From Octopus vulgaris (taxonomy: Eukaryota), in assembly GCA_951406725.2 (NCBI GenBank), contig OX597821.1, positions 102,486,001-102,550,000 of the forward strand: a DNA stretch of 64,000 nucleotides. Reading direction: 5' to 3'. This document shows, one piece after another, positions 7,101-63,511 of this stretch; within the stretch, counting starts at the first letter, position 1; every line of letters begins with the position of its first letter. The notes beneath the pieces were generated by a model. It was not told the DNA's origin. It was given only the letters and a program-made list of their open reading frames with translations, and made no database searches. Position numbers and translations under genes: made by a program.

Positions 7101-7864
7101 ATAGGTATCTAAGTGAGAAAAAAGGAAATGAATTGAAGAGAAGATTTGTTTTTTTTTAAATAGGATTTTAACGGGTTGTATGTGTGTGTGTGTGTGCATA
7201 TGTATATGTATTTATGTTTGTTTCTTATTGTTATTTGTGAAAACAATTTAACGTTAAACTGAAAATTACTCAATACCTTTTAGTAAAGTACGTGTTTCTT
7301 AGACATTTATATAAGAAAAGAGAAGACAGTGACTTCGAAGTTTTGGCCTGCTAGTCTTCATTAGACTGTGTGTGTGTATGTATACACACACACACACACA
7401 GCTCAAAGAATAACCTTGCTGTTTGATGGCATATGGTAGCCAATATAGAAACTTTTAAATGCACCTTATGAGGTTATTATCCAGATAATATTGAATATAT
7501 GTATATATTGAGTGAGAGGGCAGCACATGCCATCAAAGTAATGATGGGGTACAAATATATATAGCCCAATATACCCATCATGACTACCCATCTGATAAGG
7601 ATATGTCCGGCACAAGCAAATCTGTGGTATCAAGCAGAATATTTGCTCTAGCCCATCTTTTACATGACGGCAAAAACATGTACATGATAGCAATTCCAAT
7701 CAGTTAAGATCAGAAGCTATGAGAGCCACTACCTGGCATTGCGTCAGGGTGGCGGCAGCCCCCCCCCCATGTTAGGTTCCTAGTTTAGCTCTTTGAATCT
7801 TGTTTAGTGTTAAATCGACCCAAGATCATTGGCATTCCAGCTGTGACCACTCTTTTATATTTAA

Positions 7865-8085
7865 CCCTTTAGTGTTCGCATTATTCTACCAAAATTAAGG
7901 CATTTTCATCCACATTGTTTTGAATTAATCATGCATTATCTTGTAGCTATGAGATTTTGATGAGGTAGCTGTTAATTTTTAAAACGATATTGTAGGGTTG
8001 GTGTGAGAGACCAGATATGGCCAGTTTGAACATAAAACAAGCAGAATACTTTTGGCCGGATATGGCCGGTTTAAATGCTAAAGGG
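7865..8085. mobile_element. piggyBac-type MITE; inverted copy at 12636-12856, diverged copies at ~2983-3150, 11115-11713 (SINE-interrupted), 12948-13172
   Basis: TTAA flanks with CCCTTTAG...CTAAAGGG termini. Confidence 0.85.
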
Positions 8086-14030: not shown

Positions 14031-14249
14031 GTATCAGCTACTTTTGCTGCCAGTTTAGTCACAAGTCCGGCCATTGGGGCATATTTGGAGCGGCTGTACA
14101 GTGATACTCTAGTGATTTGGCTAGCGACGGCTGTAGCCGTGCTCGATATTTTGTTCATATTAGTTGCTGTCCCAGAATCCTTACCTGAAAAGTTACGCCC
14201 TGCCAGCTGGGGATCACAGATTTCATGGGACAAAGCCGATCCCTTTGGT
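14031..14249 (+). CDS. MFSD14: MFSD14/HIAT1 coding exon
   Basis: ctgcAG acceptor, GTAATT donor at 14250; 219 nt, phase 0/0; VSATFAASLVTSPAIGAYL...VAVPESLPEKLRPASWGSQISWDKADPFG. Confidence 0.95.
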
Positions 14250-15880
14250 GTAATTATTGAAATTATTTCTTTTTAATGATACTCAATTTATAATATCGAT
14301 TAATTGAGTTGCTTGATATCTCTGGCTCGCAACGATTTTTATTAATTTTTTTGTCTTGTTTTGTGATGTGGTTAAAAAAATAGTCTTCATCTTCTAAAGC
14401 AAAAATATAATTGGTAAAAAAAGAAAGAAAAAAGGCCTGGTAAAAAAAAAAAAAAAAAAAAAAAAAACCGGCAAAAAAAACAAGGGCCTGGTAAAAAATA
14501 AGGCCTGGTAAAAATAATAATAGAGAATTGAAATAATTTCATTACCAGGTATGTGATACCTGTGAATCAATATTCTAAACCAAATCTTTGCATGTTGTGG
14601 TTGGTTTAATGATGAAATAATCATAGTATTTTCTGGATGGCAGGCCTTCGATTGCATGAAATTTTATTTCTATATTCATTAAAATTTATTTCTTTAACTC
14701 CCTGTCCTCTTTCTCACACACGTGTGCACATGCATACACACACATACATGGGACTAATTTGGAGCAGGATTTTAAAGCCAGATGCTTTGAAAGGGAAGCG
14801 AGGCAAAGACCATCAACATCACCACACTGTTTTACTCTGGCAGTGACATGCACGGCCTTAGAACATCAACACACACACACACACACCTTTTATCTTTTGC
14901 TTGTTTCAATCATTAGACTGTGGTCATTCAGAGAAGCTTTAGTCAAATTAATCAACCTTAGTACTTTTCTCTTTAACCCTGATACTTATTCTGTAATTTC
15001 ACCCCATTCCAGCCAAACTGCTAAGTAACGGGGATGTAAACAAACTATCAAGCTGTGGTGGGGGACAAACACAGACACAAAAACATACATGCATATATAT
15101 ATATATATTGGTGCAGGCATGGCTGTGTGGTAAGAGGTTTGCTTCCCAACCACATGGTTCCAGGTTCAGTCCCACTGTGTGGCACGTTGGGCAAGTGAGT
15201 GGATTTGGTAGATGGAAACTGATAAAAGCCCATTATATATTCTTTTATTTGTTTCAGTCATTTGACTGCAGCCCTGCTGGGGCACCACCTTTAGTTGAAG
15301 AAATCAACCCCAAAAATTTTCTTTGTAAACTTACTACTTATTCTTTTGGTCTCTTTTGCCTAACCCCGAACCGCTAAGTTACGAGGATGTAAATGCACCA
15401 ACATCGGTTGTCAACTGATGGTGGGGGTGGGGGGGACAAACATAGACACACGAATACACACACACATATATATATATATACACGACAGGCTTCTTTCAGT
15501 TTTCGTCTACCAAATTCACTCAGAAGGCTTTGGTTGGCCCAAGGCTATAGTAAAAGATACTTGCCCGATGTGCCACGCAGTGGGACTGAACATGGAACCA
15601 TGTGGTTGGCAAGCAAGCTACTTGCCATACAGGCACCACTGTGCCTATATATATATATATATAAGTATATATATATATAAGTATATATTTTTGTGTCTGT
15701 GTTTGTTCCCCCACACCATCACTTGACAACCAATGTTGATGTGTTTACATCCCCGTAACATTAGCAGTTTGGCAAATGAGGTCGATAAAGTACTAGGGTT
15801 ACAAAGAATAAGTCCTGGGGTTAATTTGTCCGACTGAAGTTAGTGCTTCAGCATGGCCTCAGTAAAATGACTGAAACAAG

Positions 15881-15914
<34 letters not shown>

Positions 15915-15917
<3 letters not shown>

Positions 15918-17140
15918 AAAGTATTAGTAAGCAGCAAGAGGTACTCAACACACATCCCCTCGGGTAGGTGGCCCTGCTCAACCTGTAGGAAAGGTACAGG
16001 TAGAAACTCCATAAGATGCACCCAATGTAAGTTATGGACACATAAGAGGTGCAGCAACATTAAAGGGAAATTAACAGATAAGATAGCTTTCATGTGCGGC
16101 AGATGCACAGGGACAATAGACACAACAGACACTCAGAAAACAGATTCCATCACACTCCAGGGAGAGAAACTAGAAGTAGTTGATAGTTTCCGCTACCTGG
16201 GAGACCAAGTTAGTAGCGGAGGTGGATGCACAGAGAGTATCACCACTAGAATACGAATAGCCTGGGCAAAGTTCAGAAAGCTCCTACCCCTACTGGCAAC
16301 AAAAAGGCCTCTCCCTCAGAGCAAAAGGTAGATTGTATGATGCATGTGTGCGAACTGCCATGCTTCACGGTAATGAAACATGGGCTGTGACTGCAGAAGA
16401 CATGCGTAGACTTGAAAGAAATGAAGCTAGCATGATCCGCTGGATGTGTAGTGTCAGTGTGCACGCAAAACAGAGTGTAAGTATCCTGAGAGAAATGCTG
16501 GATATAAGAAGCATCAGATGTGGTGTGCAAGAGCGACGCTTGCGATGGTATGGTCATGTGCTGCGGATGGATGAAGAGAGATGTGTGAAGAAGTGCCACT
16601 CCCAAACAGTTGAAGGTATCAGGGGGAGAGGTAGACCCAGGAAGACATGGGATGAGGTGGTCAAGCATGACCTCAGAGCATTGGGCCTCACTGAGGCAAT
16701 GGCGAAGGACCGAGATCTCTGGAGATATGCTGTGACTACAAAGACCCGGGCTGCTTTCTGCAGCAATTCCACATACCCCCTACCCATTCTAAGTACCCCG
16801 GATCCCCAAAGTACCCCGGATCCCCAAAGTACCCTGGATCCCCAAAATACCCCGATCCCCAAAGTACCCCGGACCTCGTTGCCCCCGTGCCGCTGACACG
16901 TTAAAATGCTCGAACCGATCGTGACGATGCCGGACCCTCCGGCCCCTGTGCAGGTGGCACGTAAAAAGCACCCAATCCACTCACGGAGTGGTTGGCGTTA
17001 GGAAGGGCATCCAGCCGTAGAAACTCTGCCAGATTCAGACTGGAGCCTGGAGCGGCCCCTGGCTTCCCAGACCCGGTCAAACCGTCCAACCCGTGCTAGC
17101 GCGGAAAGCGGACGTTAAACGATGATGATGATGATGATGA
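15915..17140 (+). mobile_element. 5'-truncated RTE-clade LINE (3' end of ORF + 3' UTR with (GAT)n tail)
   Basis: TKVL...PHD-like Cys/His finger...EKLEVVDSFRYLGD...RIRIAWAKF...RRLRWYGHVLRM...RGRGRPRKTW; one frameshift near 16305; inserted in a (TA)n tract; ends gacgttaaac(gat)n. Confidence 0.9.
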
Positions 17141-26351: not shown

Positions 26352-27965
26352 GTAAACATTTTATGTTGTTTTGTATTGTGTATAAGTTCCACCCCTAATT
26401 TAGTATTAAATCTTGGTACAAAATTTTCTACCTTCTTAGTTTTAGTTTACTTGAGACGATCAGTGTCACAGTTTCCGCAACACTAACCATCATCACCCCT
26501 GCCTTGTAGCACTCGGCAGTAAAGCCATTCAGTGCGTGTGAGAAATTATCTAATGAGCCAAGTAGCACCATGTCATTTGCATATATCAGCCAACTGATGT
26601 TACACCCACTAATTGTGATACCACTTCCAGTTCATAAGAAAATTATGAAAGGGAGAGATGATGATTTGCACTTGGTCTTTATTTGTTATGACCAAATTGC
26701 ATAGGCTTGTCCTTGGCTCTATTGCCTTTGGAAATTCAGTGAATCACTGATTAGCTGTTTGGAATCATATATTAATTCTACATTGTTTACATTATTTACG
26801 TTTGATGGATATTTGTCCTCATTTTGTTTGGTGTTAACAACAAACAAGATGAGAACAAATATCCTTCAAATGTAAATAATGTAAATAATTCCTCATTTCT
26901 TAAATATAGAACTGTATATTAATTCTGTTGTTCATAAAATGCATGTTGTCGTTTTATCTTTTACTTGTGTCAGTCATTTGGCTGCAGCCATGCTGGGGCA
27001 CCACCTTGTGAAGGGTTTAAGTTAAACAAATTGTCCCCAGAATTGTTTTTTTAAGCTTAGTACTTATTGTGTCAGTCTCTTTTGCTAAACTGCTAAGTTA
27101 TGGGGCTGTAAACACACCAACACCTGTTGTCAAATAATGTTAGGGGACAGACAGACAAACACACACACACATATACGATGGGCTTGTTTCAGCTTCCATC
27201 TATCAAATCTACTCACAAGACTTTGGTTGGCCCACGGCTATGATAGAAGACACTTTTACAAGGTGTTATGCAGTGAGACTGAACCTAGAACCGTGTGGTT
27301 GGGAAGCAAGCTTTTTAACATACAGCCATGCTCGTGCCTATATAAATATAAAAGTTTTTTGAAAAATGTTGGTGCAGCGATGGCTGTAGTCTGCTTCGCA
27401 ATTGTGTGGTTCTAGGATTAGTTCTACACTGCACTGCACTTTGAGAAAGTGTCTTTGACTGTAGCTTTAGGTTAACAAAAATCTTATGCGTGGAATTGGT
27501 AGACAGAAACTATACAGAAGACCACCGTGTGTGTGTGTGTGTGTGTGTGCGTGCATGCATGCGTGCGCGTGTGTGTTTGAGAGTTTGAAAATGCCAGGTC
27601 AGTGTTATGTCAGAAAGGTGACTTAATCCAAGAGATTGATAAAATAAATACCAGGCTGAAGTAAGTACTGAGTCAATATGATTGACAAAACCTTTCAAAG
27701 TGGTACTCCAGCATGGTTTCACTCCAGTGACTGAAACCAATAAAAAATATATGAAAATAGGACTATATTATCTAATATCCTTTCCTTTATGTCATATGAT
27801 GGATTTTTTGTTACTATTTCTAGCAGGTAGAATGATCACATTGAAATGCCTTCAGTCTCATTATCATCATCATCATCATTGCTGTATGAAACCATTATGT
27901 TAATTAAAAGAGACCATCATACTCACTCACCATTCTTGTTTATTATTATTATTTCTCTCTTTTAG

Positions 27966-28144
27966 GGGTTGCTCAAGGCATGGTTACAGGCATTCGTGGT
28001 TTGTGTAATGGGCTTGGCCCGGCCCTGTACGGCTTCATTTTCTATTTATTCCATGTTGACCTGAATGACATGGCTGAATCCAACAAAAAGAAACCAATTC
28101 TTTTAAACAATTCATCTCATCCCACCACAACTAATACCCTATTG
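27966..28144 (+). CDS. MFSD14: MFSD14/HIAT1 coding exon
   Basis: tttAG acceptor, GTAAGT donor; 179 nt; (G)VAQGMVTGIRGLCNGLGPALYGFIFYLFHVDLND...TNTLL. Confidence 0.94.
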
Positions 28145-30055
28145 GTAAGTATATACAGTGCTTTCATGCCTTGATCCTTTTCATACAAACCCCTTTTCAG
28201 ATTAACTCTGAGTCTAAGGAACAAAACTGTGTGGTAAGAAGTTTGCTTCCCAACTACATGGTTTCTGGCTCAGCCCCACTGCATGGCACCTGGGCCGATC
28301 AAAGCCTTGTGAATGGATTTGGGAGATGGAAACTGAACAAAGTCTGTTGTGTGTGTGTGTGTGTGTTCTTTTCTTGACCTGCTTTAAGAGTCACTATCAT
28401 GCAAGTCAGAGTCCTTCATTTCCAGTCTTCTGTGAAAACATCTCCGGGCATGGAGAAATATTACCTTGCTTAGAAACAGGTGAATGTTGGTGTCAGGAAA
28501 GGCATCCAGCCATGGAAAAACCTACCTTAGCAAATTCTGTCTGATCCATGCAAGCATGAAAAAGGGCATGTCGAAATGATGAAGATGATGAGTACAATGA
28601 TGTTCATCATCATCATTATTGTATATCATTTTCCCTTAGTAGCTTGAGCTGGAATGGTCTCTCAATGTCCTGTCACTCATCTGCAGTCCTTGTCATCTGG
28701 TAAACACAGCAATGGAACAAAAACCAGCTGTTTTTGCTATTCTGCCCTTCAGCCTCTCCTTTATTTTTTTCAGCATGGTTTATACATGTGGGCTTTTCCT
28801 ATTACTAACCTGTTCATGTTTAGATTAAAATCTTTCAACACAAGACCTCCTTAAAAGCATCTCTGTCACCCTTTTGTTACTGTATGTCTGTTGAAATACC
28901 CTACCATCATCATCGTTTAACATCCGTTTTCCATGCTAGCATGGGTTGGATGGTTCGACCAGGGTCTGGGAAGCCAGGAGGCTACACCAGGCTCCAGTTT
29001 GATCTGGCAGTGTTTCTACAGCTGGATGCTCTTCCTAACGCCAACCACTCTGTTAGTGTAGTGGGTGCTTTTTACATGCCACTGGCACAGGTGCCAGAGG
29101 AGGCTGGCAACGGCCACGATCGGTTGGTGCTTTTTACGTGCCACCGGCATGGAAGCCAGTCATGGTTGCACTGGCATCGACCACGTTCGGATGGTGCTTT
29201 TTATGTGCCACCGGCACAGGTATCACAACTACAATTTCCACTTGATTTTTTGATGTTGATGTACTTGACTCAATAGGTCTCCTCAAGCACAGCAGGTCGC
29301 TCTACAATCCAAGGTAAGCACTGCAGGCCGTCTTGTGATGCACAGCGTTTGTTTAATTTTGAAAATAATGAAGGATTTATTAAAATAACTTTAAGGTGGT
29401 GTTTGGCACAAAGATTAACATGGAATTTTTGATTGAAGTTTTAATATAATTCAGTTTAAAACAAGGAACTTGTATCATAGCACCAAGGGGCAGTTTTGTG
29501 CAAATTGATATCAAAAAGGTTGAGTAATGTTCCAAGTGCTAACTTAATAAGGAACAAGTTAGTTATTTTACTAAATCCATTGAGATTCTTGGAGTATTTA
29601 TTTCAAAATTAATTAAATCACATAGGTGTGCATTTAATTAGAAATATGTTTAATTGGAAGGTGGCAAATTGGCAGAAACGTTAGCATGCCGGACGAAATG
29701 CTTGGCGGTATTTTGTCTGCCACTACGTTCTGAGTTCAAATTCCGCCGAGGTTGACTTTGCCTTTCATCCTTTTGGGGTCGATAAATTAAGTACCACTTA
29801 CGCACTGGGTCGATGTAATCGACTTAATCCTGTTTTCTTCCTTGTTTGTCCCCTCTACGTTGAGCCCTTTGTGGGCAATAAAGAAATAAGAAATATGTTT
29901 AAGTGGCTTTGTGGTAAGTAGCTTGCTTACGAACCACATGGTTCCGGGTTCAGTCCCACTGTGTTATCACCTTGGGCAAGTGTCTTCTACTATAGCCTCG
30001 GCCGACCAAAGCCTTGTGATTGGATTTGATAGACAGAAACTGAAAGAAGCCTGTC

Positions 30056-52373: not shown

Positions 52374-52776
52374 TTAATTTACATGGTTTATCATGCAAGT
52401 TCCGCTAGAGACGCTACTTTGACGTAATAATCTTTTGACAAGGTGTCGTGTCCGACAGTAGAACACCGCAAGAACAACCACTAAGATGGACAGTAGTATA
52501 CATGCAGTCATAAGTCCCCAAGCCGGGTCGGGTTCGATGCTGTCTCGCGGCAGGCGCCGCTCGTACGGATTTTTCTCGTAATTTGCAAAATGTAAATCAC
52601 GTCTTCGTAATTCTGGTACTATCTTGTTCCAGAATGCCATTTTCTTGGGTTTGAAACGGATATTCATTTCGATGTGAGGTTCACCACGCTGGTTTTTAGT
52701 TATCAGAGCGTAGATTGGTTTCTCTGTTGTGTATCGGTCAATGTAGAAGTTTTTTAACGACATCAAAGAGGGTAAA
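52374..52776 (-). CDS. Type-B carboxylesterase/neuroligin-like protein, terminal coding exon with transmembrane helix
   Basis: Minus-strand tttcAG acceptor; phase joins the 59874 donor (GG|T = Gly); LPSLMSLKNFYIDRY...KMAFWNKIVPEL...WGLMTACILLSILVVVLAVFYC (TM), short tail, TAA at 52374-52376. Confidence 0.85.
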
Positions 52777-53009
52777 CTGAAAAAGAGAGAAAATGAAACT
52801 ATACATAGTAAAATAAGAATGGGAAACGGTTTAGCTGGCTAAAACAGAAATATGCACAGTTAATAGATGAATATCTAAGGAACTCATAATTCAAACCATG
52901 ATAAGCGAAATTGAAAAATAGCATTCCATAGGTTTTATTTACATTGCTACGACGAGCTATCGCTAAAACTGGTGACCCCTTAGAAGAAACAAGCACTACA
53001 ACCTAGCTT

Positions 53010-53780
53010 TTCAACTTTCAATACACCGCGAATATGCTAACCAAATTGTCTGAGAATCTTTTCGCCCTCTCTGTCGTGGTAGCCTCTTTCGAACCGTCAC
53101 CACTTGTCGTCGATACGTTGGCGATCGCTTGAAGGCGGCGAGCTGGCAGAGACGTTAGCACGCCGGGCTAAGTGCTTCGCGGTATTTCGTCTGCCGCTAC
53201 GTTCTGAGTTCAAATTCCGCCGAGGTCGACGTTGACTTTCATCCTTTCAGGGTCGATTAAATAAGTACCAGTTACGCACTGGGTTCGATGAATTCGGCTT
53301 AATCTGTGTTTCTGTCCTTGTTTGTCCCCTCTGTGATAGCCCCTTGTGGGTAGTAAAGAAATAGGTATTTCCGTCTGCCGTTACGTTCTGAGTTCAAATT
53401 CCGCCGAGGTCGACTTTGCCTTTCATCCTTTCGGGGTCAATAAATTAAGTACCGGTTACGCACTGGGGTCGATGTAATCGACTTAATCCGTTTGTCTGTC
53501 CTTGTTTGTCCCCTCTGTGTTTAGCCCCTTGTGGTTAATAAAGAAACAGATACGTTGGTGATCGCATCTCAAGAGCACAATGCTGTTTCTCAACTCACCA
53601 AACGATTTCAACTTCGCCGAGATGCCAGTAGACAACTTGCAACATCGTAAATACTAATAAATACTAATAAGCTCTTTTTTGTCTTGTTTTCTTTGTTGTT
53701 CATCTTAAGAAAAAAAGAAAAAAAAAAGACCCGGTCAGCATCGGCTACGTAAAACCGGCTCCCCTTAAATCTCAAACAAC
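53010..53780 (+). mobile_element. Possible highly decayed Ty3/gypsy remnant, interrupted by a SINE dimer
   Basis: After removing the SINE (17-bp TSD gatacgttgg(c/t)gatcgc at 53112 and 53549) the flank reads VVASFEPSPLVVDTL...LTKRFQLRRDASRQL (gag-like); VSIGYVKPA at ~53734 resembles the integrase-end VSIDRLKPA. Weak evidence. Confidence 0.3.
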
Positions 53781-53944
53781 ATCAGCTTCAGCCCCTGAAC
53801 AAACGGACCCAAGAATATCAGCACGTTCTTCCACTGATGCTTCCAGGTTAAGTTAACGAGTGCTTTTTCCAGAACAATAGCAATAACAAAAAACAACAAA
53901 ACTACACAAACACCAGAACGAGGCGCCAAACAGGATCAAATATT

Positions 53945-54709
53945 CTTTTCTACTCTAGGCACAAGGCCCGAAATTTTGGGGGAGAGTGTCAGTCAATTAG
54001 ATCGACCCCAGAACGCAACTAGTACGTAATTCATCGCCCCCGAAAGGATAAAAGATAAAGTCGACCTCGGCGGAATTTGAACCCACAACGTAAAGACAGA
54101 TGAAATACCTATTTCTTTACTACCCACAAGGGGCTAAAACACAGAGAGGACAAACAAGGACAGACAAACGGATTAAGTCGATTATATCAACACAGTGCGT
54201 AACTGGTACTTATTTAATCGACCCCGAAAAGATGAAAGGCAAAGTCGACCTCGGCGCAATTTGAACTCAGAACGTAACGGCAGACGAAATACCTATTTCT
54301 TTACTACCCACAAGGGGCTAAACACAGAGGGGATAAACAAGGACAGACAAATGCATTAAGTCGATTATATCAACCCCAGTGCGCAACTGGTACTTATTTA
54401 ATCGACCCCGAAAGGATGAAAGGCAAAGTTGACCTCGGCGGAATTTGAACTCAGTACGTAACGGCAGACGAAATACCTATTTCTTTATTACCCACAAGGG
54501 GCTAAACACAGAGGGGACAAACAAGGACAGACATAGGTATTAAGTTGATTACATCGACCCCAGTGCGTAACTGGTACTTAATTTATCGACCCCGAAAGGA
54601 TGAAAGGCAAAGTCGACCTCGGCGGAATTTGAACTCACAACTCGGCAGACGAAATACCGCTACGCATTTCGCCCGGCGTGCTAACGTTTCCGCCAGCTCG
54701 CCACCTTGT
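53945..54709 (-). mobile_element. tRNA-derived SINE family 3, four-unit head-to-tail array (monomers/dimers at ~4741-5130, 8475-8665, 25135-25590, 29658-29890, 39411-39625, 46635-47107, 50695-50902, 53130-53548, 57740-58120)
   Basis: ggcgagctggcagaa...gagttcaaattcc head; conserved gaggtcgactttgcctttcatcctttcggggtcgataaattaagtacc body; array flanked by 15-bp TSD acagga(t/c)caaatatt. Confidence 0.88.
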
Positions 54710-55469
54710 ACAGGACCAAATATTGCAACAGCTTGGGTTTCAAGGACCCACAAATCTCCAATATCATTACAAAAAACCTTAGAGACCAACATGAGGCGGA
54801 TATAGGTATCTTAAAAAAAATCTCCCCCTGTCAAGAGTTCCAGAGGCTGGAAATGCAAATGAGGGTAGCAACACCAAACTCCATTCGCCAAATGCCACAT
54901 ATCAGAGGAAGTTTCAAGTAATGAAAGTGTAGCAAAACTAACAGCGGTGCTCCAGCATGGACACAGTTATTGAGCTAAAACTAGTAACTGAATAAAAGAA
55001 TGAACCAAAAACAAAAACCAAAGAAAAAAACTGCGATTTTTTTTCATCAAACTATCCTTTTTTACTAATTTCACTTTTCTGCTCACTCTTGCATAATGTG
55101 AACACATATACATTGCACACACACATCGACATGCATACATTCACATAAATTTAACATGATCATAGGCACACAGTACAGGCACCCGGATATCTAGCAGACA
55201 CGCAATCATTGCTAGTAGTGTACATAAAATTCATTGCGGATAGAAAATGCCAGACAACTTTTGGTTCAGAAGCTTGGTAATAGTTGAACTGGGTCGCTAT
55301 TTCAACCCACTGCTAAGCGTTGCACCGACTCATATGCGTAAAAGCACATGACTATGTACGAGTCTCTTACTCGCTCGCTCGTCCAAATGGAAATGGAGAT
55401 GGTGATTTGATATGAATAACATAACTGAGTCTCGCAGACACTTCCACTGCCACGCAATCAAAAACGTGA

Positions 55470-56700
55470 CACATGGCAGAACAACTGATGTGGCAGACTG
55501 GGACGAGCTGTGTAAAATACAGAGGTGGTTATTTCGTCGACAAGTAGTCAGCAAGCAACCACCAAACGGACAACATGGATTAAGGCGGGAAGAAAGCCTT
55601 CAACACAAACTTCTTCAACGATTCGAACAGCAAAGACAACTGACAAGCACATACAGCATACACATGGGTCTACAATTGGGCACAAGAAAACGAGTTTTCT
55701 GGGGCAGACGTTGTTAAAATAGATTTTAACGATGAGAAGCACCAGATGGTTTTTAAAATAGTACTCCTCTTCCATAATCAAATACCATGCAAAATGTCCC
55801 AGCCGAATTAAAAGATGCGACGATATAGACCACTTCCATATCATTTCGTGACACAAAACACATCCAACGTCGAGAAGTACATTCAGCAAACTTTAAAAAC
55901 TTTTACACGACCACGACAAATTACAAGGATACGAGATGAACATAGTAAAAATTGACTCACCAGCAGGCTTCGGTGAATACTTACAAAAATACCCGGTAAT
56001 AGCCTGTAATCATATACGCAGGAATTCGCAGAGACAACTCCTGATGCTCACAGACAAAGCAACATATTCGTTTAAACCGAAAGACGAACACATAAACAAA
56101 ATATGTATGCAAAAAACAACGATACCGTACGATGAAAGATAATTTTAGTTCATAAAAATATATTGATGAACAAATGCAATAACACAGACTTTGGAGATAT
56201 AATAAATTTCTCAGTACAGCAGGAAAGGGTAAATACAGAGCTGTATCGGACGCCATCTACATGAAGACACCTTAACTATTGTTTCTCACAACCGATATGG
56301 CCACAAATACGAACCCCACCCCACAAACTTCGTCAATTTCTACATCAAATAGGAAACCGTTACTGAGAGAAGGACGTCTATCTAGGCATCTACGAGAAAC
56401 GGTGTTCCTTCCAAAATATCATTCCACGGGATTTAGCTTAAGACTTGTTTAACGTACGTCATAAGATATAACCGAAAAAGAGTTCGCTATATATTATCGG
56501 TGTACCAAATAGTTACGTCCTCCATTCGATCAGAAATAGCCCCATGAATGGCAGCGGAATGATGTGCCAAGCGTCGTACAATTTCACTTCCGGCACCTGA
56601 GTCGACAAAATACCCATATTTCCCGGTGAAATGTGGTTTACGCCGAAGAATATCGAAGAGGCAGAGTGTGTCTTAAAAGAAATTGAAACATAAAACATAA
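55470..56700 (+). pseudogene. Endogenous parvovirus-like NS1/Rep remnant (HUH endonuclease + SF3 helicase)
   Basis: Read through stops and one frameshift: DDIDHFHII (HUH, 55828), GEYLQK (YxxK), NVRHKI*PKKSSLYIIGVPNS-YVLHSI (Walker A region lacking GKS, 56472-56530), NFTSGT*VDKIPIFPGEMWFTPKNIEEAECVLKE (Walker B/B'); motif order and spacing fit NS1. Confidence 0.75.
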
Positions 56701-56881
56701 TTCAGAGAGAATAATGCCAAAAAAAAAAAAAACACTGCAACATGGACCTTTGCCAAAAAACACTGTAACATGGACTTTTGTCAAAGAAAAGTGAGAAAAC
56801 CAAAAAAATGGGAAGCAGATTGAAACCGAAAGAAGATGGAAACAAAAGGTGTAGAAGAAATTTTACAGGGACACAAAAGCC

Positions 56882-56988
56882 GAAACCGATTCGGAGAAGA
56901 GGTGGCTATGGATGTGGAAACCGATTCGGAGAAGAGGTGGCTATGGATGTGGAAACCGATTCGGAGAAGAGGTGGCTATGGATGTGGA
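56882..56988 (+). repeat. 35-bp tandem repeat, 3 copies
   Basis: gaaaccgattcggagaagaggtggctatggatgtg x3. Confidence 0.95.
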
Positions 56989-57572
56989 AAAGTGATCTTC
57001 AACTAGAAACAGAATCTTTAATAATGCCAAAAAAACCTGTAACATGGACCCTTGGAATCGTGTGCCCCAAGTGGGGACAGAAAGAACTAATCTCATTGAT
57101 GTGGATCACCATATGGAGAGACAGCAGCGACGATTACGACCAAATTACATTCTCTACCAATAAATACGATATGCCGAAGCAACATAAGAGACGTCACATC
57201 ATCAAGAAAAAGGAAATTATAATCTATAAACAATTCCCAAGAAGAAATCCCAACCTGCAGGCGTAAACTCCAAAGACAAAATGGGAGGAGAAAGAGACAA
57301 TCGAAGAGGAAGGTACAAACAACCATAACTGCGGATGCGCGTTTCTTTGGAAGACAGCGACTGGGAATTAGATATCACACAACACGGACAATCATGTAAA
57401 AAGATGGCCTAGAAAATTAAACAGTGTGTAATTTCATATTGTTGTTATCGTCTTGTTTTCAATTATTTTCGACTTGCTTGTTTACGTATTTTCAACTTTT
57501 ACTAATATCATCGAACGGCGGTGTTATGAGGGATCATGTTCATACTATTTTTCTGATATTTTGAATTACAAA

Positions 57573-57729
<157 letters not shown>

Positions 57730-58339
57730 AGTATTTTAAGTTGGCGAGCTGGCAGAAGCGTTAGCACGCCGGGCGAAATGCTTAGCGGTATTTCGTCTGC
57801 GTTACGTTGTGAGTTCAAATTCCGCCGAGGTCGACTTTGCCTTTCATCCTTTCGGGGTCGATAAATTAAGTACCAGTTACGCACTGGGGTCGATGTAATC
57901 GACTTAATACCTATGTCTGTCCTTGTTTGTCCCCTCTGTGTTTAGCCCCTTGTGGGTAATAAAGAAATAGGTATTTCGTACGTCTCTATGTTCTAAGTTC
58001 AAATACCACTGAGGTTGACTTAACCTTTCTTTCTTTCAGAGTCGATAAAATAAGTAGTCAATGTAATCGACTTAACCACTTCTTTAAAATTGATGGCCTC
58101 GTGCCAAAATTTGAAACCATTGTCGTTCCACTTTGTTGATGATGTAACACAGGCGCCAGCTCTCCACAACGAGTGGACTGGGGTAGCACCTTCAATTGAA
58201 GGTGCTATCCCTGTCCACTTTTCTAAGTATTCTAAGTACTTTTTCTAAGTACTTTTCTAAGTATTCTAGCAGTACCAAGAAGTGTTGTTTTCTGTAAGTG
58301 CTCCACCCTGATATTGTTCCCGATTTTTAAAAAAATTGT

Positions 58340-58840
58340 TTTTTTAGTTGTGGTGCTCACATTACAAAGAACCACGACAAAAATTGGGTGGAATATCTCA
58401 GTGGAGACCTCAATAAAATGTAAGCGCAACAGACCTGATATAATGATTTGGGATAGAGAAGAGAAACTGTGCACAGTTGTGGAAATTAACTGCCCAGCGG
58501 ATGTTAACATAAAGCTGAACATCAGTGAAAAAGAGAACACCTATGCTGAACTATTGAAAAATCTGCAGGTAGTCTATCCAGATTACAAGCTCAGGTTTAT
58601 GCTTGTAATTTTTGGAGCGCTGGGATATGTAACACACTGCCTAAATACCAATATTGAGAAATTAGGCTTCTCAAAACCAGAAAGGAAAGAGCTAATTCGA
58701 AGACTACACATCCAATCCATCACTGGAACTGTAAAGATCTGTAAAACTTTCCAGAAGTTTATCATTTAAATATATATGAGCATGTCTAGATATGCAACTA
58801 TATGCATGAAAATACATACATAAAACAAACAAATCTGCAC
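58340..58840 (+). mobile_element. RLE-type non-LTR retrotransposon 3' fragment ending at a (CATA)n tract
   Basis: RPDIMIWDREEKLCTVVEINCP...EKENTYAEL...VIFGALG restriction-like endonuclease motifs; abuts an oppositely oriented RLE tail (58232-58315: EHLQKTTLLGTARILRK). Confidence 0.82.
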
Positions 58841-59319
58841 ATACATACATACATACATACATACATACATACATACATACATACATACATACATACATAC
58901 ATACATACATACATACATACATACATACTCTTTGCCTTCTCTTCTTGCTCACTTCACTGTGTCCCTGTCATTTTTTCTCGCTCCTCCTTAATTCTTCTGT
59001 CCCTCTGCTTCAACTTCTCTCTCTTCTCTTCCCACGTGACCGGCGTTCGGCCAAGCCTGCTCTTTCTTTTGGTCTGGCCGTTGTCCGTGCAACATCGATA
59101 TTCCTCCCTGTGTTTGTGAAATCTTCTATCCCTGCCGTAAGGCTTCATTTCCACACACGCCAGCTTAATTTAATTCGTCCTTAGTCGAAAGACACCTGTT
59201 GTTATGTCCTGTTATTATTTTTATTGTATTTGTGTAACATTGTCCGTTTTTTTCCGTCCTTGTTTTTGTATACATTCGCTGCTTTCTTCCAAGGAATCTA
59301 ATGCTCTTAGCTTAGTTTT

Positions 59320-59500
59320 TCTTTAGGGCTGGCCAGATTTGAGCAATCTCAAGTATAATCAGTCGAAATTGCCAAGATAATCTGGTATTTGACTGAGGAA
59401 AGAAAACTTCGAATGACCTGTCTTTGTTTTCTTTGTATCGTCACTCTGGATGTTTTGTTGTCCCATTTTTGTATCACCTAACTGTGTCCCATTTTGTATT
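59320..59500 (+). repeat. Unclassified dispersed repeat; second copy at ~41185-41385
   Basis: Shared gggctggccagatt(t/g)gagcaatctc...aagataatctggta...cgaatgacc...gtcccattttgtatt. Confidence 0.75.
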
Positions 59501-59763
59501 TTTTATATGCTTATATATTTATACATACATACATACATACATACATACATACATACATACATACATACATACATACATACATGCATAAAACAAACAAAAA
59601 TACCCTGTTGTTGATGTTGAAATTCCAATAAAGAGACTTGGATGTAGGTTAGAAACCGGTTCTTTCTCTATTGGCAAGAAATCTTGAAATAAACTGAATA
59701 ATGACATCCATCCATCCATCCATCCATCCATCCATCCATACATACATACATACATACATACAT

Positions 59764-59798
<35 letters not shown>

Positions 59799-59873
59799 TA
59801 AGTATGTACAGACACATATACACACATACACACGTACGTAGATGGTTTTGTAATAAGAACGTGTATTTGTTAC

Positions 59874-60009
59874 CCTTGTTTGATGAATGTTGCCCATAAA
59901 CGTATCAAATAGCGGGACATCATTCGGTCCCTGTTATCGTAACGGAAGTTAGCGTGTCCTCCTAATGGTGCGCCAATCAAGTAGAAAAGTTCGGAGCCGT
60001 GAAGGATTG
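59874..60009 (-). CDS. Type-B carboxylesterase/cholinesterase/neuroligin-like protein, penultimate coding exon
   Basis: Minus-strand tacAG acceptor and GTAAC donor; 136 nt; AILHGSELFYLIGAPLGGHANFRYDNRDRMMSRYLIRLWATFIKQG, matching the catalytic-His HGxEL.Y.xG motif and the W.xF.KxG motif of the family. Confidence 0.88.
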
Positions 60010-61162: not shown

Positions 61163-63511
61163 CACTGGTCAACTAGTATTTTTCATCAAGTATATTTCAA
61201 GGTGTACTTAGTGTAGTTTTTTACGCTGATTTCAAATATATAATTAGTTTTTTGACATCACGTACAGTTTTCAAGAATGAGAAAGTTGTTTTGGTTTTCG
61301 CCGATGCATTTTATAGAAATTCCAATTAATGACGTATATGCATGTATTTCATTTACATCATGGAAACATGCCTTTAAAATAAACTACATAATTCATTGCT
61401 GCATAGTTAACATGCAATATTTCATCATCTTAAATTAACATCTTAAATTAACCAATCAAGTTTTGTCTGATGAAATAGGTATATCAAGAAATTGTTCAGT
61501 CATTATTGGTCTGCAGAAATATTTCATTATCTCAAATTCAATATAAGTATAACCATTTGTATCTATTTCCTTACTTGTTTTACAGTGTTAACAATATCAA
61601 GACAGTGTAGAAATTGTCCTGATGTGTTTTGTTATGTCTGTGGACAATTTATTGTGAAGGCTCAAAAAACGTACAATAACACCAAAAATCAAGATTTATA
61701 AGCTATACTTTGACTGTCCTCTTGGAGATCAGGACATGTTATGGGCACCACATTTTATCTGCTCTCAGGTTTCTCAAATGGTTTACGTGACTGGTTCCAT
61801 AAGAAGAAGTCCATGCCTTTTGAAAACCATCCGGAGGGAACCAAAAGATCATTTTAATGACTGCTATTTTTGCAAAATAAATGTCAGAGGATTTTCTATG
61901 AAGATTAATCAAAACTGTATATACTAATTTGGATTCTGCAATGAAACCTGTGTCTCACAATGGAAGTCTGCCAATTCCAGTTCTACCAGATGGTGGTATT
62001 GAAACATCAGATGATGATGCTGACTCACGTTAGTGCTGCAGAAGAAGATTACGTGGCTGATGACGATGGCTTTGAGCCTCAGAAATTTTCCCAAGCTGAA
62101 CTGAATGAACTTGTCAGAGACCTATCCCTCTCAAAAGATAAAGCAGAACTGTTGGCACCAAGTCTGAAGGAGAAGTATCTGCTAGAGCACCGTGTTCATA
62201 TAACTTATTTTCGGCAGAGAAATGTGGTTCTACAAACGAGTTTTTCAGTTGAAGGCCCGCTTTGCTTTTGCAGTAACGTCGATGAACTTTTCGAATGTTT
62301 TTCACAAAATCATGATCTTGGAGTGTGGCGTTTGTTTATTGACTCTTCAAAACGAAATTTAAAAGCTGTACTTCTCCATAATGGTAATTTGAAGCCCTCC
62401 ATTCCTATTGCACATTCCGTTCTTCTTCATGAATCATATGAGAATATGGAATTTTAGTTCATGTCATTGCCTATGAAAGATACTCATGGAAAATATGTGG
62501 AGATTTAAAAGTCATTGGAATGTTGATGGGAATGCAGTCAGGTTTCACAAAATACTGTTGTTTCTTGTGTCTACGGGATAGTCGGGCAACTGACAGACGT
62601 TATTCGGAATCAAACTGGCAGACAAGAATATCATACCAGCCAGGACTATGTAGCTTCAAGAATACACCTCTTGAAGATCCATGTAATGTTCTATTGCCTC
62701 CTTTGCACATAAAACTTGAACTGATGAAACAGTTTGTACAGACATAAGGGAAGAGAAATACCAAAGGGTTTGGGTATATTGTAGAAAAGTTTCCCAAAAT
62801 CATCACAGGCGAAGTTGAAAAAAGGTATCTTTGTCGGACCCCAAATTAGAGAAGTATTCAAATATGTTAACTTCAAGACAACACTGGATGAACTGGAACT
62901 GCCTGCCTGCCTGGAATGATTTCAGCTGGATCTGTGGGAATTTCTTGGGCAACAAGAAGGCAATGGACTACAAGGGTGGCATCAAGAATCTTCTGAAATC
63001 TGACTCAGCAATGGGTTGTCGCATGTCATTGAAAGTTCACTTCTTGGACGCCCATCTGGATTTCTTCACAGATAACCTTGGAGCAGTGTCTGATGAACAT
63101 AGTGAAAGATTTCACCAGGACATTAGTGCTATGGAGAAACTGTACCAAGGCTTCTGGAATGACAACTGCTGGACACTTTACCGTGATCAACCAGATCAGG
63201 AACACCGCAGGAAATCCAAATCACAATGTTTCTAATTCTGTTGTTCTAACTTTGTTTTGTCTGACCCATTTTTTTGTGTATTCACTCTTTACTAGTCATG
63301 ATTTTTAACTCAAAAAACTCATTTACTTTCTAAAAATAATATGTCCTTATTTATTACGTTAATGATATCATATATACAAATATATAAATATTTGCTTGTA
63401 TCTACAGAAAAACTTATACTTGCTACATACAACTGGAGTAAAGTTTTGAAATTAGCCTAAAAAAGTTGGTTTGCATTCCTGAGTATAATATATTTAAAAT
63501 GTTGACCAGTG
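61163..63511 (+). mobile_element. CMC/Chapaev-3-like DNA transposon, decayed transposase
   Basis: Terminal CACTGGTCAAC...GTTGACCAGTG; subterminal inverted match (tttttacgctgatttcaaa / tttgaaattagcctaaaaa); near-3-bp TSD tag/taa; broken ORF ~61596-63235 with CRNCPDVFCYVCG, WAPH, REPKDHFNDCYFC, LFIDSSKRNLKAVLLHNGN, LLPPLHIKL, SDEHSERFHQDI. Superfamily name is from recollection of these motifs. Confidence 0.8.

Follow-up and report, generated by a model that had tools for sequence, protein, structure and literature searches.

The locus and its features

The window analysed here is a 64,000-nt stretch of a chromosome-scale contig in a 2.8-Gb Octopus vulgaris assembly (G000:C8:102486001-102550000). 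At about 55575-57250 on its + strand lies a decayed parvovirus NS1 gene, comprising an HUH nuclease and an SF3 helicase. The gene is preceded by the tail of another viral gene, is interrupted by a piece of a retrotransposon, and sits within an intron of a host carboxylesterase gene that runs in the opposite direction. We identified the following features.

52777..59873, - strand: final intron of the host carboxylesterase gene, with the element inside it; GT/AG ends and matching phase
55039..55372, no strand assigned: dispersed host repeat in the left flank, non-viral; three other copies (L033-L035)
55406..55547, + strand: final ~45 codons of a probable capsid (VP) gene; one frame change, stop codon TAG at 55545-55547
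55548..55574, + strand: 27-nt spacer from the VP stop to the NS1 ATG; candidate NS1 ATG at 55575
55575..56157, + strand: NS1 nuclease half; conserved AYTW at 55656, HUH at 55828 and YxxK at 55978; frame change near 55761
56160..56722, + strand: NS1 linker and SF3 helicase; Walker A, Walker B near 56610-56636, B' to 56722
56710..56780, + strand: tandem pair of a ~30-45 nt viral stretch in the motif C region (repeat families D5 and D10)
56782..57022, + strand: internal piece of a non-LTR retrotransposon (LINE), with a 35-nt unit in three copies
57035..57250, + strand: NS1 motif C and C-terminal helicase part; tblastx matches to L016, L018 and L020; 17.7 bits, iE 1e-6 with the family profile
57416..57421, + strand: ATTAAA followed by T-rich sequence, a possible viral polyadenylation signal; similar sequence follows NS1 in L027 and L079

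Several motifs can be read in the sequence: DHFHII at 55828, EYLQK at 55975 and PKKSSLYIIGVPNS from 56472, with the Walker B/B' stretch at 56601-56690. NS1 homology spans 55647 to about 57250. The nuclease half is 35-36% identical to the relatives P0010 and P0162, and the helicase shares 59 of 133 residues with P0010 and 55 of 110 with P0162. Its reading frame is broken by at least five frame changes (near 55761, 56159, 56210, 56273-56354 and 56686) and by in-frame stops, six to eight according to which reference is aligned. Three Walker A codons are absent after 56510, a gap seen against every relative aligned. The element makes no working protein. It spans what would be two transcription units and has no poly(A) tail.

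The retrotransposon piece matches nine other loci of the genome at 71-91% identity, and the flanks of those loci translate to reverse transcriptase (RVT_1, E 2.4e-4), zinc-knuckle and endonuclease-type motifs. Behind it, at 57020-57054, stands a third copy of the ~30-45 nt viral stretch. A 103-aa frame at 55406-55717, which begins with the capsid tail, has no Pfam match. Inverted repeats (I1-I4) that surround the element were considered as viral ends and rejected, as by eye they are copies of a common host repeat. No NS1 was found within 10 kb of the other copies of the left-flank repeat.

A preliminary description of the locus, made from the sequence, had placed the fossil at 55470..56700, with a single frameshift at ~56160 and a deleted Walker A GKS. 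The deletion is borne out by the three-residue gap, and the count of frame changes and both boundaries required revision: sequence ahead of 55548 belongs to the end of a different viral gene, and NS1 continues behind the LINE piece to about 57250. Four things had been overlooked: the tail of the likely capsid gene, the swapped order of the two genes, the 3' portion of NS1 and the LINE insert.

Identification as parvovirus NS1

Direct searches were empty. With stops written as X, none of the nine translated window frames matched a Pfam family, the PDB gave no match below E 0.1, and none of 51 protein candidates was a match. The window could be linked to NS1 because other copies in the genome served as a bridge. 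A search of the genome with PF01057 found eight loci over the cut-off, the best of which (L016) matches the window helicase frame at E 5e-31 (38% identity over 211 aa) and the window DNA at 71% over 129 nt. With the L016 copy as query we found unbroken, unnamed NS1 relatives of 568 aa and 642 aa, the latter (P0010) encoded on a 5245-nt contig. P0010 aligns to the window at 55774-56124 and 56163-56690 (68.9 and 110 bits, sum E 3e-41); the maximum in 60 shuffles was 28.9 bits. A profile built from 18 relatives scored 61 and 134 bits on the window and at most 5.9 in 100 shuffled regions.

The NS1 relatives of the window pass the Pfam cut-off for PF01057, and the HUH and YxxK motifs are aligned across the family. 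AAV Rep is the top match of the family profile, and the N-terminal part of the profile matches the RepB HUH domain (E 1.4e-4). The predicted structure of P0010 has a mean pLDDT of 79. All named proteins among its best 50 viral fold matches are parvovirus NS proteins (five rows are nameless), and AAV Rep68 ranks first in the PDB.

Parvoviridae are defined by an NS1 with an SF3 helicase and an N-terminal HUH endonuclease, a T=1 jelly-roll capsid protein, and linear ssDNA of 4-6 kb with terminal hairpins. The window element is an endogenous parvovirus NS1, with host flanks, disabling mutations and an insertion common to four species labels. The preliminary description had called it a parvovirus-like NS1 fossil on the strength of its motifs, and the two alignments and the profile agree with that call. 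It had also proposed a frameshift-tolerant PF01057 search; the frames themselves gave nothing, but the window aligns to relatives that pass this model.

Host intron and age of the insertion

The intron is bounded by exons at 59874-60009 and 52374-52776. Three exons match COesterase (E 1e-5, 1e-26 and 1.3e-12), and the product has a GHSAG serine motif and a hydrophobic C-terminal stretch. Neuroligins are not known to carry this serine. Because the motif is present, the host gene is not a neuroligin in the strict sense. An earlier assignment of NS1 as antisense within an intron of a carboxylesterase/neuroligin-like gene thus stands for its position (intron on the - strand, element on the +) and for the carboxylesterase, and is withdrawn for the neuroligin.

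Part of the stretch is contained in 16 of 24 listed sequencing runs, from nine studies and under four organism labels. Four runs that cover the four labels (X2, X5, X7 and X9) were compared with the window, and contigs joining flank and element are present in all of them, as is the LINE piece. Another run of label A differs by 17 substitutions in 1988 nt and label B by 72 in 2027 nt. For label C (run X7) we counted 22/580 in a mostly flanking contig and 22/668, 22/667 and 21/610 in the element, and for label D 29/711 and similar values. The insertion and its flank thus occur under three other species labels at about 3.5% divergence, so the insertion is old; its presence at the orthologous intron of other species had been suggested as a check. 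Contigs over Walker A carry gap totals of 18 for label B (13 of them listed), 5 for C and 6 for D, which leave no space for the missing codons, so the Walker A break predates the split.

Other remnants in the window were recognised by eye. The same intron holds the endonuclease-type end of a non-LTR retrotransposon at 58236-58769 (+), with no Pfam match. Elsewhere lie a mariner-like transposase remnant (899-1726, -), a LINE reverse transcriptase end (15825-16896, +), a broken frame of another transposon type (61658-63235, +), and exon-like pieces of a membrane transporter gene (14150-14276 and 27950-28174, +).

Related copies in the genome

P0010 has 31 matches in the genome; grouped and assigned by position and identity, they form 14 loci of the window lineage and four of a second lineage. 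A 15th locus of the window lineage, at C18:6.79M, retains only the start of NS1. We built a quick IQ-TREE phylogeny from 147 helicase stretches, excluding L074 and all rows with fewer than 120 aligned residues except three of our own copies. It places the window in a clade of 23 rows (SH-aLRT 99), which has a stem of 0.77 and no supported sister; the second NS1 lineage is placed far from this clade. Proteins from outside the clade share 24-26% identity with P0010 in long alignments and 30-37% when the helicase alone is compared.

At C14:64.33M (L025:4544-9277) an NS1 of the window lineage is followed 1.1 kb and 3.5 kb on by pieces of second-lineage NS1, a possible cluster of viral inserts. Contacts with retrotransposons recur: viral pieces adjoin or nest in LINE pieces at L024:4338-5616, L031, L027 and window 56782-57022, the NS1 at C19:23.96M has LINE ORF1-like sequence on both sides, and a viral piece on C12 directly follows a LINE reverse transcriptase. 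Judged from these arrangements, the contacts may reflect template switching during retrotransposition.

A likely capsid gene precedes NS1

A genome search with the parvovirus PLA2 model (PF08398) gave four matches, three in an array on C4 and one in a frame on C18. The C18 frame, of 601 codons with two stops, lies upstream of an NS1 start. Used as a query, this gene, here called VP, gave 16 matches in nine loci of the genome. At five of the nine, an NS1 of the same lineage lies just downstream on the same strand (C14:54.54M, C18:6.79M, C20:32.07M and the pair C20:34.47M/34.49M); the other four have no NS1 within 10 kb, and none of the nine has NS1 upstream. The pair on C20 (L070/L071) is one capsid-NS1 insertion, duplicated about 18 kb apart. 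Counting it once and adding the window gives five independent VP-to-NS1 junctions and none in reverse (p 0.03 against an even-odds null). In place of the NS-left/VP-right layout of Parvoviridae, VP therefore lies upstream of NS1 at five independent insertions. Part of NS1 is lost to an internal deletion at two of the five junctions.

The VP tail of the window matches the VP ends at C18:6.79M and C20:32.07M. It scores 139, against at most 130 in 1000 shuffles and at most 114 in 456 other tiles of the window; at the DNA level, alignment of the window VP-NS1 junction did not rise above shuffles. The spacer from VP stop to NS1 ATG measures 27 nt in the window, 93 nt, with a TATA box, at C20:32.07M and about 127 nt on C14; that on C18 is 622 nt and contains other inserted sequence. 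VP of C18 and C20 are 40% identical, and because copies differ this widely the VP-to-NS1 order was common to several viruses.

By eye, a TATA-like box stands some 40 nt ahead of the VP start in four copies; one precedes the NS1 start in two of four copies. In three copies that extend past NS1, an AATAAA or ATTAAA signal follows; no further frame lies behind it, and the sequence there is non-coding or host. On C18, a ~300-nt direct repeat of 89% identity (L102:4451-4773 and 7592-7885) brackets the viral piece. In the second lineage, one locus (C12:68.54M, L031:4377-5420) joins the end of a capsid gene to NS1, both on the same strand and with a deletion, and a capsid piece lies inside NS1 at C29:19.15M (L029:4451-5443).

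Interpretation and alternatives

The reading that we favour, with a probability of roughly 0.6, is that the window holds a dead piece, a VP tail plus NS1, of a viral lineage whose genome is linear and carries the capsid first and NS1 second on one strand, with the usual cassettes swapped. Such a virus would have made two tandem transcripts, the capsid unit first, as suggested by a TATA box before VP, another in the spacer and polyadenylation signals after each gene. A fragment of viral DNA spanning the VP-NS1 junction could have been patched into a chromosome break in a germ cell; this route is one that we infer, because the window element has no target-site duplication of 7 nt or more. The LINE piece may have entered later or during the same repair event. 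The element would then have become fixed in the host germline and have decayed ever since, and host pre-mRNA would carry it antisense before splicing it out. Scans of viral and metagenome contigs revealed no free virus genome or relative.

Taken singly, the window locus is an ordinary dead fossil. Taken with its relatives, it quite probably belongs to an unnamed cephalopod parvovirus lineage of genus or subfamily rank, with a capsid-then-NS1 or circular genome, an extant virus of ~5.2 kb, at least 15 NS1 and nine capsid loci in one genome, and a four-species insertion able to calibrate its age.

The VP end could also meet the NS1 start with no swap of cassettes if the virus genome was circular, or if integration proceeded from circular or head-to-tail forms. 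A circle opened at an origin between the NS1 end and the VP start would yield the same 5:0 pattern, and signs of terminal hairpins are weak. The C18 and C23 insertions start at the same small stem about 170 nt ahead of the VP start, in a left sequence that is 88% identical over 96 nt and occurs at only these two places genome-wide; the stems fold at z -3.1 and -1.6, and the right-end hairpin tested (z 0.0) is unsupported. However, a head-to-tail join of a linear genome should leave both termini in the spacer, and the three spacers free of other insertions are only 27, 93 and about 127 nt long. No NS1-to-VP junction was seen, and what follows the NS1 ends has nothing in common with what precedes the VP starts. 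We consider a circular origin unlikely, though it is the strongest of the rival readings.

The linear, capsid-first reading depends on the upstream gene encoding the capsid, which we consider likely. Its PLA2 match (PF08398) has E 1.6e-6 and 28.7 bits, over a cut-off of 23.9. The gene profile has only four matches in the PDB, all to AAV capsids, the best at E 0.012; a second, weak segment falls within the body of the capsid. An hhalign comparison with a second VP family of this genome gave E 4e-4 at 36% probability; on the body of the C4 VP the profile did not rise above shuffles. For this second family, scores against VP1 clusters of parvoviruses are 0.93-0.94, and two capsids of shrimp parvoviruses match at E 9e-5 and 0.01. 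A genome search with PF00740 gave no match, nor did any control match, which makes the result uninformative.

Alternatively, the PLA2-bearing gene could be an accessory gene, as in the SwaBA-MePV-1 group, with the true capsid lost from all copies. A PLA2 frame 5' of NS1 is a published layout (PMC13426907), and the predicted structure of the C18 protein is of low confidence (pLDDT 32). Yet the gene is one 601-codon frame directly beside NS1 with capsid-like segments beyond PLA2, its relatives in the second family resemble known capsids, and the three copies that run past the NS1 end reach a polyadenylation-like signal and then non-coding or host sequence. An accessory gene thus seems improbable.

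Capsid-like genes of other kinds are also present. On C4 (G000:C4:168.362-168.377M, L107-L109) a near-identical (98-100%) array of the second-lineage capsid gene lies in both orientations between tandem ~125-nt repeats. Two copies retain an open 542-codon frame. A long perfect palindrome is found ~450 nt ahead of the start, followed by a TATA box, and no NS1 occurs within 30 kb. It looks like a recent capsid-only insertion flanked by hairpins. A third, distant capsid-like frame lies at C22:0.544M (L111:4732-5694), 24% identical to the C4 gene.

A different proposal, compatible with a capsid-first origin, is that the host retains the element for defence against the virus, as a template for antisense or small RNA. 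Its antisense position in an intron and its occurrence under four species labels speak for this, but the element diverges as fast as its flank, carries indels between species and shows no positive sign of constraint. Substitutions in the aligned NS1 fall 4/6/7 on codon positions 1/2/3 (p 0.33; 17 listed of about 90). Because element and flank diverge alike and substitutions are spread in this way over codon positions, decay is neutral, and since its insertion the element only decays. No RNA run was listed with the stretch, which is uninformative on expression. We give retention by the host little credence.

The preliminary description had likened the helicase to Hamaparvovirinae-type NS1, which would make this a fossil of that group with an ordinary layout. 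The best named fold matches of P0010 include NS1 of ichthama- and chaphamaparvoviruses, and turkey parvovirus TP1-2012/HUN is a chaphamaparvovirus. In 2016 that virus was the best BLAST match of Sepia and Euprymna sequences (PMC5013282). However, the named hamaparvoviruses (fold ranks 7, 10, 11 and 12) share only 15-16% identity with P0010 and follow six unclassified Parvoviridae with 15-19%. The clade has its long stem and no supported sister, and neither of the two named rows in the tree is a classified hamaparvovirus. Gene order also argues against this affiliation, as does the linked gene: capsids of the chapha-, penstyl-, hepan- and brevi-types lack PLA2 (PMC6631224), and the linked gene, provided that it is the capsid, departs by its PLA2 from Hamaparvovirinae in the wide 2020 sense. 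Membership of the subfamily is not supported, and a hamaparvovirus fossil of ordinary layout is very improbable.

Finally, a host ATPase or transposon remnant that resembles NS1 by chance would account for the lack of direct Pfam, PDB and protein-database matches, but it is refuted by the E 3e-41 match to the PF01057 protein P0010, and the E 5e-31, profile, fold and tree evidence is all contrary to it.

Comparison with known parvoviruses

Parvovirus-related sequences from Octopus, Sepia and Euprymna appear in the supplement of Francois et al. 2016 (PMC5013282). The entries are DW277466, DW283133 and GBHH01003248 from Euprymna scolopes, FO193416 from Sepia officinalis, KOF81493 and KOF62817 from Octopus bimaculoides, and JR446908 (VP) from Octopus vulgaris; NS of Octopus bimaculoides is genomic, and NS of Sepia and Euprymna and VP of Octopus vulgaris are transcripts. 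By eye, the Euprymna and Sepia helicase motifs are those of the window lineage, and KOF81493 is a near letter-for-letter match to the second NS1 lineage of this genome. Because these cephalopod sequences are listed there, the claim of a cephalopod host is not new: the preliminary description saw the window as the record of a cephalopod-infecting lineage, and the association with cephalopods stands while its novelty does not. In that work the mollusc sequences branch outside known genera, and its authors could not exclude contamination. That doubt is now settled because the insertion is flanked and shared: the lineage did infect germ cells of cephalopods and does not stem from contamination.

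The 2016 sequences are helicase fragments, with transcripts only for the window lineage; the nuclease half, a flanked insertion, orthology and gene order are absent from the parts of PMC5013282 compared. The fossil lineage was therefore already in print as fragments, and the VP-to-NS1 order is the part not found in print. The full-text literature searched, mostly outside subscription journals and supplements, mentioned neither these insertions nor a monosense parvovirus with the capsid gene first, and a prior report is possible. The portions consulted of PMC12031171, PMC6950620 and bioRxiv 2026.03.16.711951 had nothing to add.

The best named neighbours in sequence and fold are Turdus hortulorum parvoviridae sp. 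(QTE03882.1, 32% over 265 aa) and pot worm parvo-like virus 2 (WPR17604.1, 27% over 388 aa); neither is a supported sister in the tree. A published counterpart in layout is the SwaBA-MePV-1-like group of 'megaparvoviruses', in which a PLA2 frame stands on the 5' side of NS1 and the capsid on its 3' side (PMC13426907). Like the window lineage, they carry PLA2 ahead of NS1 and are partly known from endogenous copies. In contrast, they have a frame of no known function between PLA2 and NS1 and a PLA2-less VP1 after NS1, whereas in the window lineage the PLA2 gene lies directly beside NS1, behind which no frame was seen.

The monosense Parvoviridae (Parvovirinae, Hamaparvovirinae and itera-type densoviruses) likewise have an HUH and SF3 NS1 and a PLA2-bearing VP on one strand. 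In them NS lies left and VP right (PMC11357303; PMC6631224), as also in 170 genomes from bird swabs (PMC9896142), whereas VP lies upstream in the window lineage. If the swapped cassettes, each with its own promoter, are real, the NS-left/VP-right order would not be forced by rolling-hairpin replication, and the capsid-first layout would bear on the definition of Parvoviridae and on recombination of NS and VP modules.
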